From the IMG/VR virus record IMGVR_UViG_2663762810_000005, positions 1-10,606 of that record: a stretch of DNA of 10,606 nucleotides, one strand, 5' to 3'. The notes beneath the pieces are model-generated. The model had not been told where the DNA came from and did no database searches. It saw only the letters and a program-made list of their open reading frames with translations. Below are positions 5,488-10,606 of this stretch, piece after piece. Origin of the DNA: a virus. Its lineage: Duplodnaviria; Heunggongvirae; Uroviricota; Caudoviricetes. Every line of letters starts with the position of its first letter. The first letter of the stretch is position 1. A program made the position numbers and the translations under genes.

Positions 5488-5958
5488 CTAATAAAATACC
5501 CAATTTTCTGTTTCTTGGTTGTGTCCAAAGTTATATTCAATATCTGGTGTTGATGTATCAATATTTTTCATCCCATCAACAAGAGTTGATACAACAGCCA
5601 AATCTTGTTTTATTCTCATTAAATGGTATTTCTTCCGGCGCAATAAACTTTCAATAGCAAGTTTCTTCGTTGGGAATGCAAAAGATCTTTCTGCATTTTT
5701 TGCTACTTTCTTAATTGCATATCTATTTCTCCTTTGTTTCCATTCCTGTAACCACTGATTTGGTGCTGGTTTAAAATTAACAATCCAATGCGCAGGAACC
5801 AACCATGCATAATGCTCTGTCTGATGAAAAGCTATATATTGAAGTGCGAATATTTTTATCCCATCTTCTTCAACTGTCGCCTGGAATCTCCAGAAAACAG
5901 GCATTCCATCATGTTCAGTTTCTGATTCAGGAAAAGGTACGCTCCATGATTTTGTCAT
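5488..5958 (-). CDS. Hypothetical protein (156 aa) in a low-GC island; candidate moron, exclusion or defence function
   Basis: Long ORF in a clearly AT-rich segment; GAGGTGAG SD before the ATG; Trp/Lys-rich with no recognisable motif. Occupies the N-to-cIII interval where lambda carries ral/sieB-type genes. Confidence 0.55.
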   Translation of the reverse strand: MTKSWSVPFPESETEHDGMPVFWRFQATVEEDGIKIFALQYIAFHQTEHYAWLVPAHWIVNFKPAPNQWLQEWKQRRNRYAIKKVAKNAERSFAFPTKKLAIESLLRRKKYHLMRIKQDLAVVSTLVDGMKNIDTSTPDIEYNFGHNQETENWVFY

Positions 5959-8578: not shown

Positions 8579-8740
8579 ATGACAAAACGTCGTAAGAAAT
8601 ACCAGGAAAAAGAAGAGATTCGACACCCTGATTCACCTGAGGGATTAGTGGTAGCCGCAGCAAATAACAGGGCGTTCGCAGAGCGCCTTGTTGGTGTTTA
8701 CAGACTAGCCAAAGCAGGAGTGAAGCATGGGCGTCGTTAA
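8579..8740 (+). CDS. Hypothetical small basic protein (53 aa)
   Basis: ATG at 8579 with AGGAG 7 nt upstream; hand translation MTKRRKKYQEKEEIRHPDSPEGLVVAAANNRAFAERLVGVYRLAKAGVKHGRR; 3' end overlaps the start of the replication initiator. Confidence 0.35.
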   Translation: MTKRRKKYQEKEEIRHPDSPEGLVVAAANNRAFAERLVGVYRLAKAGVKHGRR

Positions 8741-9617
8741 GTTAGCTGATTACAGGCATAACCCTGTACAACATCAGGAGGCATCCAGTATGGGGTATGT
8801 CTCTATACACCGCCAGTTTATGGACAGCAGGCTCTATAAGGACTCTCAGGCAGTACATCTTTGGCTTCACTTAATCCTCAAGGCTAATCACGAATCTACT
8901 GTCGTCAATACGGATATCGGTCCGATAACTGTTGATCGCGGTCAGATGATAACTGGACGCCCGTCGCTGGTCAGAGAAACATTCATCCCAGACAACAAAG
9001 TTCGGAGCTTATTACGGACTTTTGAGTCGAAAGGTATGCTTAATATTTGCTCGATGGGGAAGAAATTTAGCCTGTTTACAATCGTTAAATATGACGATTT
9101 TCAGGCAAAAAATTGTCCAACGGTTGTCCAACGGTTGTCCAACGCAAACACCAGTAATGGCGCGGCTCTCAGCGGAGATTGTCCAACGGTTGTCCAACGG
9201 TTGTCCATAAACAATAATATAAATAATATCTCTAATACTGACGTATTAGAGAGTGCCACAGCAGACAAAAAGTCTGACAAGAAAAAACCTTCCGTTAGCT
9301 GTCAGGATGTTGTCGATGCTTACCACGAAATCCTTCCTGAAGCGCCAAGAATCCGCGCACTGAATGACAAGCGTAAAAACCAGATCCGAACGTTCTGGCG
9401 CAAAGCCGGAGTGATAACCCGACAGCTTGACGGGCATGGTTTCACGATGCAGGACTGGAGAAATTATTTGAGCTACGTAGGCGAAAATTGCCGATGGATG
9501 TTCGAAGAGCGCCCAAACCATCAGCGCGGAACCGTCTGGCACAAAAAGGGATTTGATTTCCTGCTTAACGATAATACCTACCTGAAAGTTCGTGAGGGTG
9601 AACACGATGACCGATAA
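8727..9617 (+). CDS. Replication initiator (lambda O / P22 gene 18 analogue) with the origin inside its coding sequence
   Basis: 296 aa; AGGAG SD; position after cII; contains two arrays of 11-bp iterons encoding repeated CPTVVQRLS, then an AT-rich segment, as in lambda ori within O. Confidence 0.7.
   Translation: MGVVKLADYRHNPVQHQEASSMGYVSIHRQFMDSRLYKDSQAVHLWLHLILKANHESTVVNTDIGPITVDRGQMITGRPSLVRETFIPDNKVRSLLRTFESKGMLNICSMGKKFSLFTIVKYDDFQAKNCPTVVQRLSNANTSNGAALSGDCPTVVQRLSINNNINNISNTDVLESATADKKSDKKKPSVSCQDVVDAYHEILPEAPRIRALNDKRKNQIRTFWRKAGVITRQLDGHGFTMQDWRNYLSYVGENCRWMFEERPNHQRGTVWHKKGFDFLLNDNTYLKVREGEHDDR
9113..9209 (+). repeat. Origin iterons: 2 x 3 tandem copies of TTGTCCAACGG (9113..9144 and 9179..9209), separated by 34 bp
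   Basis: Direct tandem 11-bp repeats read in the sequence; followed by an AT-rich stretch and a 10-bp inverted repeat tctctaatac/gtattagaga (9229..9252). Confidence 0.8.
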
Positions 9618-10170
9618 TTTTTATGCGCCGCCCCATAGCATCGAGGCAGAGCAGGCGGTGATTGGTGGATTGCTTCTGGATGATGACAGCAGTGAGCGCG
9701 TCCAGAAGGTTCTGGCGATGCTGAAGCCTGACTCATTTTACAGCCGACCACACAAAATCCTTTTCGAAGAAATAACCAGAATGCACCGGGAGCAAAAGCC
9801 AGTAGATGGCCTGACGCTTTTCGATGAACTGGAGCGTAAATCGTTAACGGCGTCTGTTGGCGGTTTTGCTTATATCGCTGAGATCGCAAAGAACACGCCA
9901 AGCGCAGCAAACATCGTTGCCTATGCAATGCAGGTTCGTGAAACCGCAATGGAACGCTACGCCATCAACCGCATGACTGAAGCGACGGAATTGCTCTATT
10001 CCCGCAACGGAATGACTGCAACGCAGAAGTACGAAGCTATTCAGGCGATTTTCACGCAACTGACAGACCATGCAAAAACCGGATCGCGTCGCGGCCTTCG
10101 CTCATTTGGTGAGGTCATGGAAGACTGGGTTACCAGTCTTCATCGCTGTCACGGTTCAGGGTGTAGTTAA
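9607..10170 (+). pseudogene. DnaB-family replicative helicase gene (P22 gene 12-like), truncated: N-terminal domain only
   Basis: From ATG 9607 (GAGGGTG SD, overlapping the initiator stop): PPHSIEAEQAVIGGLLLD...SVGGFAYIAEIAKNTPSAANIVAYAMQVRE closely matches the recalled E. coli DnaB N-terminal domain. ORF stops after about 188 aa with no Walker-type ATPase domain; homology is lost near 10127. Confidence 0.7.
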
Positions 10171-10606
10171 AGGCGCCGGCCTGAAGCGGGCGACTCAGGG
10201 CAAATGCACCTTCTTCTGTGGTGGCACCATTCTGTGCATCCACAACCCGGATACCCTGTCCGGAGGTTGCCACCCCGAGGTTACTGTTTCCGACATTTGT
10301 AAACGCAAGCCAGGTTTTGCCGGTTGCCTGACCACCATTAATCACCAGCTGGTCAGAGGCATTACTGCCATCAAGGCTAACACGCATATTGATGGTGCCA
10401 CCCTGACCGGTGAGGTTACTGGTTGTCAGTTTATGGAACGTTACCGGGGCGTTGCCTTTTACAACAGCACGGCTCAGTACGGCATCCGGTGTTGTCTGAT
10501 TGTCAAAGTAAATCTCCCCTGCGTTAACAATATCGCCGGTACTGACCACATCACCATTCAGTACCATGCTGGCGCCTTTACTGAGCTGTGTTCTGCCACT
10601 CAGACT
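10130..10606 (-). pseudogene. Autotransporter-type (AIDA-I/Ag43-like) passenger-domain fragment, 3'-truncated; open to the window edge
   Basis: Minus-strand frame is open from 10606 to a stop at 10130; Gly/Thr/Asn-rich beta-helix-like repeats (LVINGGQATGKTWLAFTNVGNS, GIRVVDAQNGATTEEGAFALSRPLQAGAFNYTL) recalled from autotransporter passenger/autochaperone regions; no beta-barrel domain follows. Confidence 0.5.

Follow-up and report, generated by a model that had tools for sequence, protein, structure and literature searches.

The cryptic prophages of Escherichia coli K-12 include Rac, DLP12, e14, and Qin. Deletions associated with palindromes or quasipalindromes, with which the nearly precise excision of Tn10 may be compared, are reportedly accounted for by a model that Glickman and Ripley put forward in 1984. 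RecA-independent aberrant joints between prophage and chromosome underlie the lambda Spi- assay, and RecA-independent end joining follows replication-associated breaks, usually at direct microhomologies of about 9 bp, of which a single copy is left (PMC11372144). Here, we analyze a joint between a prophage replication gene and a host adhesin gene, and we propose, at a probability of roughly 0.77, that it is the scar of a real, local, and collinear deletion of about 37 kb that would have run from the prophage into the neighboring CP4-44 island in one E. coli strain.

The window, by which we mean the whole stretch of 10,606 nucleotides analyzed, is made up of the last 10,606 bases of the chromosomal draft contig JXWI01000003.1 (411,815 bp; E. 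coli assembly GCA_000948905.1), and the junction lies 476 bp from the contig end. The genes of the locus are int, a 63-aa xis-like gene, Ead/Ea22, the anti-RecBCD gene Abc2, SSB, a Rad52-like annealing protein, and Kil, continuing with CIII, N, an S24 repressor, a Cro-like protein, CII, a 296-aa protein in the O position, and a helicase stump. Judged by these genes, the locus is a P22-like/lambdoid early region belonging to a prophage family that resides between sbcB and dacD. The 3' end of int is 98.5-99.8% identical to the integrase genes of 12 other loci, with sbcB adjoining in 12 of 12, and the xis-like protein and its integrase adjoin sbcB in all 10 contigs returned. A 156-aa ORF between CIII and N (5488-5958, - strand) has no Pfam match; it stands at the equivalent position in many P22-like early-left operons (L005, L007, L009, L022, L023, and L028).

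The features around the junction are as follows:
8727-9617, + strand: intact 296-aa replication-initiator-like gene in the O/gp18 position, taken from the ORF list, directly upstream of the helicase
9607-10132, + strand: native 5' portion (codons 1-175 of 478) of the gene for a DnaB-like phage replicative helicase, 100% identical to L001 4208-4733
10120-10128, + strand: left inverted-repeat arm, GAAGACTGG, native helicase sequence encoding E-D-W of the helicase
10129-10132, no strand: spacer GTTA with the joint inside it, TA (10131-10132) being common to both parents
10130-10132, - strand: TAA stop made by the joint, Ag43 Tyr602 codon TAC changed to TAA
10131-10606, - strand: Ag43/Cah-family autotransporter fragment, residues ~444-601 of a 942-aa allele, running off the contig end
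10133-10141, - strand: right inverted-repeat arm, CCAGTCTTC on the + strand and GAAGACTGG on the Ag43 coding strand, native Ag43 sequence encoding E-D-W, residues 599-601
10133-10170, + strand: non-native tail of the chimeric helicase ORF, TSLHRCHGSGCS plus stop, antisense of Ag43

On the + strand, the joint in its context reads ...GGTCATG GAAGACTGG GTTA CCAGTCTTC ATCGCTG..., and positions 10105-10156 are TTTGGTGAGGTCATG GAAGACTGG GTTA CCAGTCTTC ATCGCTGTCACGGTT. A sequence-only reading of this DNA had pointed to a perfect 9-bp inverted repeat at this site, and the two arms, GAAGACTGG at 10120-10128 and CCAGTCTTC at 10133-10141, separated by the 4-nt spacer GTTA, are indeed exact reverse complements. 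That each arm encodes E-D-W in its own gene agrees with the translations of both frames: the + frame around the left arm gives ...GEVMEDWV..., and the - frame ends ...NRDSDEDW and stop. The - frame that runs off the window end translates as ...AFNYTLNRDSDEDW followed by the stop.

In megablast alignments, intact helicase genes match the window up to 10132, and intact Ag43 genes match it from 10131 onward. The breakpoint named in the sequence-only reading is therefore retained with its end points shifted: the helicase ends at 10132 rather than near 10127, Ag43 begins at 10131, and the stop codon lies over 10130-10132. The helicase gene of strain PM06121 (1,437 nt, 478 aa) is intact and reads GAAGACTGGGTTA up to the break and GCGACCTTGAG past it, the first bases past the break being GCGACC. 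In window orientation, the intact Ag43 gene of strain EC15 reads CACTGCGCAGG before the break and TACCAGTCTTCATCG after it; the Ag43 side at the break in the intact gene is GCGCAGG and then TACCAGTCTTC. Read directly from the intact parents, the 4-mers at the spacer are GTTA on the helicase side and GGTA on the Ag43 side. From these parental reads and the two homology end points, the parents overlap at the joint by 2 bp (TA), and each 9-mer belongs to the native sequence of its own parent. At the stop site, the intact Ag43 gene has GAAGACTGGTACCTG and the - strand of the window has GAAGACTGGTAA; Tyr602 is lost to a stop codon because the third base of its codon is now helicase-derived. Both genes had been described as incomplete, and they are truncated at the true breakpoint, with aligned intact relatives running on for another 303 codons (helicase) and 341 codons (Ag43).

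We searched positions 9400-10606 against 5,426 complete E. coli genomes by megablast. The search matched 3,176 records, the best of which extend over 9400-10132 with identities as high as 100% and carry full-length DnaB-like helicase annotations. In the window helicase, Pfam detects the DnaB N domain (PF00772) at residues 8-112 (E = 5e-32), and the N-terminal domain and linker are all that is retained. The RecA-like ATPase domain DnaB_C (PF03796), which bears the Walker motifs and lies at 190-445 in the intact 478-aa relative, was not found by Pfam in the 187-aa window ORF. This chimeric + ORF (9607-10170) reads MTDNFYAPP...SFGEVMEDWVTSLHRCHGSGCS and stop, and its 12 terminal residues are antisense Ag43. 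By its domain content, the window copy is a gene fragment of a helicase of the P22 gp12 type and no helicase. The 296-aa protein in the O position has no Pfam match; in 8 of 10 other contigs, the same protein is followed by an intact 478-aa helicase. The 3' end of its gene (8727-9617) overlaps the helicase start by 11 nt. As it is present in 4,542 blocks of the assembly collection, we regard it as a widespread, uncharacterised initiator type.

On the other side of the joint, positions 10131 to 10606 matched genes annotated as 'Ag43/Cah family autotransporter adhesin' at up to 100% identity in 2,923 genomes (megablast, query 10100-10606). The sequence-only reading had allowed for an intact phage tail-fibre-like gene whose natural stop falls here, and this possibility fails, since the DNA of the - ORF is 100% identical to Ag43. 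In Pfam, the intact 942-aa Ag43 contains AIDA repeats, an autochaperone at 492-593, and a beta-domain at 670-918. The fragment covers the autochaperone/pertactin-like end of the passenger, and its last native residue is W601. Its 158 visible residues match AC_1 (E = 6e-20) and Pertactin and no other Pfam domains; the autotransporter beta-domain, or translocator (PF03797), is missing from the window copy in this search.

We also compared the fragment with individual Ag43 alleles. It matches the Ag43 genes of L002 and L015 at all 476 positions (10131-10606), whereas the CP4-44 allele of 23CRST014 (L021) matches at 475 of 476 and that of ANT differs at 9. The only alleles with 476/476 identity whose surroundings were examined lie near setC/selC (setC/yicL) in EC15 (L002 and L020) and beside a methyltransferase/SNF2 island in PRO_A-2576 (L015). 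The flu allele of K-12 is too diverged to match the window fragment, and K-12 was for this reason used for gene order only. Because 100% identical alleles exist in other islands, the fragment is not assignable to the CP4-44 copy by sequence alone. Over the 476-bp stretch, identical or nearly identical Ag43 alleles occur in at least three islands of different strains, a distribution from which the Ag43 passenger segment appears to be exchanged between island copies.

The arrangement of the two parents relative to each other can be read from NCTC9104, which in window orientation carries four blocks:
Block 1: sbcB (-)
Block 2: int (+) ... O-like gene, helicase (+), nin, Q, lysis genes, P22-type head genes, tailspike, acyltransferase
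Block 3: dacD (+), sbmC (+), yeeA (+), tmaR (+)
Block 4: yeeW (-), cbtA (-), cbeA (-), yeeT (-), yeeS (-), antirestriction gene (-), DUF932 (-)

In strains ANT and 23CRST014, a block of the NCTC9104 type goes on with DUF932, DUF905 (-), and Ag43 (-). K-12 has a matching gene order around flu, and in many complete genomes a composite query recovered yeeA to Ag43 as a single collinear block. In this dacD-sbmC-yeeA-tmaR/CP4-44 arrangement, which is read from other genomes and presumed for the ancestor of the source strain, the helicase (+) and Ag43 (-) face each other convergently.

The sbcB-site prophage of NCTC9104 (L014) has its att regions at 1841-2050 (attL) and 40690-41020 (attR). On the attR side, upstream of dacD, lies a near-copy of the original sbcB 5' end (CCGTCATTtATCATTAGG...), and the sbcB gene beside int begins with a different, phage-supplied sequence. 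Judged by these two ends, the phage family seems to insert itself at the beginning of sbcB and to replace the 5' end of the gene. Prophage remnants occupy the sbcB/dacD site in several complete genomes (L018 38500-46300, which is ANT; L004, L006 5900-10200); the ANT remnant is IS1-flanked, and that of CP142677 consists of a tail-fibre-assembly gene and a few early genes. The sbcB/dacD locus is a recurrent graveyard of the sbcB-site phage family.

A deletion is the simplest reading of the junction, because sequence to the left of the helicase break joined to sequence to the right of the Ag43 break is the product that a deletion yields. An inversion or a tandem duplication gives other fusions than the one observed. 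Before the proposed event, a P22-like/lambdoid prophage would have stood between sbcB and dacD. The deletion would have started at codon 175 of the DnaB-like helicase, taking the rest of the replication module, nin, Q, and the lysis genes, and would have gone on through the head and tail genes and then attR. The genes dacD, sbmC, yeeA, and tmaR would have been removed next, followed by the right end of an island of the CP4-44 type as far as codon 602 of flu, the convergent Ag43 gene. The ends would have been joined over the 2-bp overlap (TA) in an illegitimate, essentially homology-independent reaction. With the prophage part taken from NCTC9104 and the host part from ANT, the lost interval is estimated at 36.6 kb.

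The joint passes from parent to parent without an IS element. A comparison of the att core region of the sbcB site with the junction gave no resemblance, and the phage integrase was rejected as the maker of the joint, since the att region of this site has nothing in common with the junction. The window contains no Chi sites that might have set resection end points. Three further independent deletion junctions were found in the replication module of relatives with the 296-aa O-like protein. In L023 (~11552), the helicase breaks off near residue 224, next to a 246-aa fragment of an integrase and the host genes focA/mlaA/fadL; in L030 (~11217), it is cut at residue 112 and joined to a Q-region; in L029 (12327), the nin region is deleted directly after an intact helicase. 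The event is ordinary, strain-specific prophage decay.

The 187-aa chimeric protein is on record for the single contig JXWI01000003.1, the junction is spanned by 0 of the 5,426 complete E. coli genomes (megablast), and the 47-nt junction sequence has no match in GTDB species representatives, IMG/VR viral contigs, or JGI metagenome contigs. Given that a single draft assembly has this joint, 476 bp before a contig ends and within a gene family of several copies, at which assemblies tend to break, it might stem from a sequencing-library or assembly chimera, in which case the last 476 bp would come from a chimeric read or fragment and no such junction would exist in the cell. This origin is unlikely, given that synteny places the very partner gene some 37 kb downstream and orients it as a deletion predicts; by our rough estimate, a random partner would meet such a target with a chance well under 1%. 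Moreover, artefacts within a single library fragment do not bridge 37 kb, and an anneal-and-extend artefact at the 9-mer would use up one copy, whereas both are kept here. An assembly misjoin at a shared repeat needs common sequence of k-mer length; since just the 2 bp TA are common across the joint, a k-mer misjoin is not the cause, and the k-mer graph needs real spanning reads.

The junction might also be real and involve the Ag43 copy of a distant island (e.g., of the selC or pheV type) through an inversion or translocation. E. coli genomes hold up to 5 places that match the fragment, and the only 476/476 alleles with examined surroundings lie in non-CP4-44 islands. However, a 475/476 allele is present at CP4-44 in the required orientation, and Ag43 alleles are shared between islands, so identity assigns no locus. 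A deletion reaching a distant copy would remove essential genes, and losing 37 kb of dispensable genes is a more parsimonious event than an inversion of strong asymmetry; the latter argument rests on the organisation of the E. coli chromosome. We regard a distant partner as even less probable than a chimera. As for a locus in which nothing was rearranged and a natural, short N-domain helicase-like gene sits beside an intact phage gene that stops here, the annotation 'DnaB-like helicase N-terminal domain-containing protein' in some relatives could be taken as evidence for it, but these entries are halves of insertion-split pseudogenes rather than naturally short forms that end at this residue. 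In addition, more than 3,000 genomes extend the helicase past 10132, 2,923 extend Ag43 past 10131, and the stop codon is assembled from bases of both parents; the alignments refute this last explanation.

The local deletion into CP4-44 bears on what the prophage and its host can still do. The sequence-only reading had concluded that the prophage is cryptic, which fits, since the prophage retains nothing at this locus to the right of helicase codon 175. Between the helicase stump and the host-island DNA of this contig there are no nin, Q, lysis, or morphogenesis genes, which intact relatives carry. The prophage retains, by gene content, an integrase at a known att site (sbcB). Lacking attR, it should be unable to excise. 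We infer a locked-in cryptic element that keeps the int/xis, recombination, immunity, and O-like genes and would be incapable of replication, excision, lysis, or particle formation. The helicase ORF would amount to a 187-aa N-domain stump, and the Ag43 passenger fragment, having no translocator, would be unable to reach the cell surface. If the deletion is local, the strain probably has no dacD, sbmC, yeeA, tmaR, or CbtA/CbeA module, all of which are dispensable in K-12. Annotations would better label both the 187-aa 'DnaB N-terminal domain protein' and the fragment of Ag43 as pseudogene fragments and the prophage as defective. The locus adds another case of lysogens disarming prophages by a deletion through their replication and late regions, the price here being an adhesin gene.

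We evaluated the inverted repeat against a null model in which break points are drawn at random in the real prophage sequence and the real dacD-to-flu (Ag43) sequence. A perfect inverted repeat of at least 9 bp with a loop of at most 10 arose across 78 of 300,000 random joints (2.6e-4), and the frequency with a loop of at most 4 was 7.2e-5. A direct overlap of at least 2 bp is unremarkable, at 0.157 (p = 0.16). By these frequencies, nothing about the joint but the inverted repeat is statistically unusual. Between them, the two regions hold about 2,400 inverted 9-mer pairs; what is rare is that break points land on such a pair, not the pair as such. The other decay junctions have inverted repeats of 5 bp (L023), 2 bp (L030), and 3 bp (L029), none above background, and the inverted repeat is thus no recurrent or general signature. 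As single-stranded DNA, the hairpin is moderately stable (-10.1 kcal/mol, z = -4). A terminator function was rejected, since no T-run follows the hairpin on either strand.

The suggestion of a short-homology or hairpin-mediated event survives in part. The homology amounts to only 2 bp, and the statistics of the repeat suggest that a hairpin may have played a role. That two break points lie 2-4 nt inside native, mirror-oriented GAAGACTGG words is unlikely to be chance, and the words probably reflect how the sites were brought together or cut, whether the complementary 9-mers paired transiently or, for instance, a staggered cleavage of two-fold symmetry took place. To our knowledge, no textbook pathway makes the observed product from same-strand 9-nt complementarity 37 kb apart. 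On paper, microhomology annealing with extension, single-strand annealing of two resected 3' tails, and inversion or recombination between the repeats each predict a single repeat copy or another gene fusion, so that none of the three routes accounts for the product.

It is conceivable, though we hold it to be doubtful, that the mirror GAAGACTGG words are the footprint of the agent or pairing that made the deletion, and hence of a distinct mechanism. Each parental site would then consist of an identical half-site and a 4-nt core (GTTA or GGTA, 3/4 pairable), and a two-fold-symmetric or motif-directed activity would cut both sites equally far from the word, after which the ends would be rejoined. 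The activity might come from two type II topoisomerases that exchange subunits, from a type IIS-like nuclease with GAAGAC as its recognition word, or from an as yet unknown dimeric protein that cleaves DNA. Two geometries fit the product. A 3' single-stranded end with GAAGACTGG might pair with CCAGTCTTC at the other site and tether the two sites, whereupon the unpaired tip would prime through TA on the displaced strand in a long-range template switch. Alternatively, a staggered cut might fall equally far from the identical word at both sites, with 4-nt 5' staggers at the arm edges allowing the cores GTTA and GGTA to pair at 3 of 4 positions.

GAAGAC occurs in both arms, each copy pointing at the joint. 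This hexamer is the word of BbsI/BpiI-type IIS enzymes, which make 2/6 cuts, and BbsI-type cuts from both arms are predicted to fall 1-2 nt from the joint. We know of no GAAGAC-specific enzyme in E. coli. The window has no depletion of GAAGAC that would signal a cognate restriction system (5 occurrences vs 5.0 expected). With respect to the topoisomerase candidate, both sites presumably fit the old pBR322 gyrase consensus poorly. Gyrase cuts leave 4-nt 5' overhangs (PMC6379681). The deletion itself opens no new question, and wider interest is confined to the inverted 9-mer pair at its end points. If the footprint proposal were true, the locus would record a natural, inverted-word-guided illegitimate deletion in a bacterial chromosome; if inverted pairs were enriched across many natural deletion scars, they would indicate a specific, undescribed route of illegitimate recombination.

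Finally, we compared the locus with the closest known systems. The 4-nt spacer and the parental cores pairable at 3 of 4 positions resemble gyrase subunit-exchange recombination, for which the two sites here would be candidates, and GAAGAC in both arms, aimed at the joint, resembles the cutting geometry of a type IIS-like nuclease, itself a candidate. As in the model attributed to Glickman and Ripley, the end points lie at the base of a potential inverted-repeat stem that may have juxtaposed the ends. In the classical form of that model, however, a hairpin is deleted between flanking direct repeats, whereas here both arms are kept and the interval is lost; the stem-loop of the model fits an Okazaki-sized single-stranded gap, whereas here the 'loop' would be about 37 kb and the stem 9 bp.

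The prophage resembles the cryptic prophages of K-12 in keeping its integrase, immunity, and early genes and losing its replication, lysis, and structural genes, and relatives at the sbcB site have also decayed by IS1 or by other deletions. Unlike those of K-12, the deletion in the window appears to have removed the host genes dacD-tmaR and part of a second island and to have truncated a host adhesin, and it is strain-specific rather than lineage-fixed. Compared with the lambda Spi- class, the direct overlap here measures 2 bp, and the two 9-mers, being inverted copies, have both survived; the scar is chromosomal, whereas the assay scores a packaged phage. In other respects, the likeness to lambda bio/gal formation (Ikeda-type, alternative end joining) is close: a lambdoid prophage holds one end point and the adjoining host DNA the other, and, as in Spi- events, the joint involves no IS or att site and little or no homology and would represent the residual chromosome that carries the deletion.
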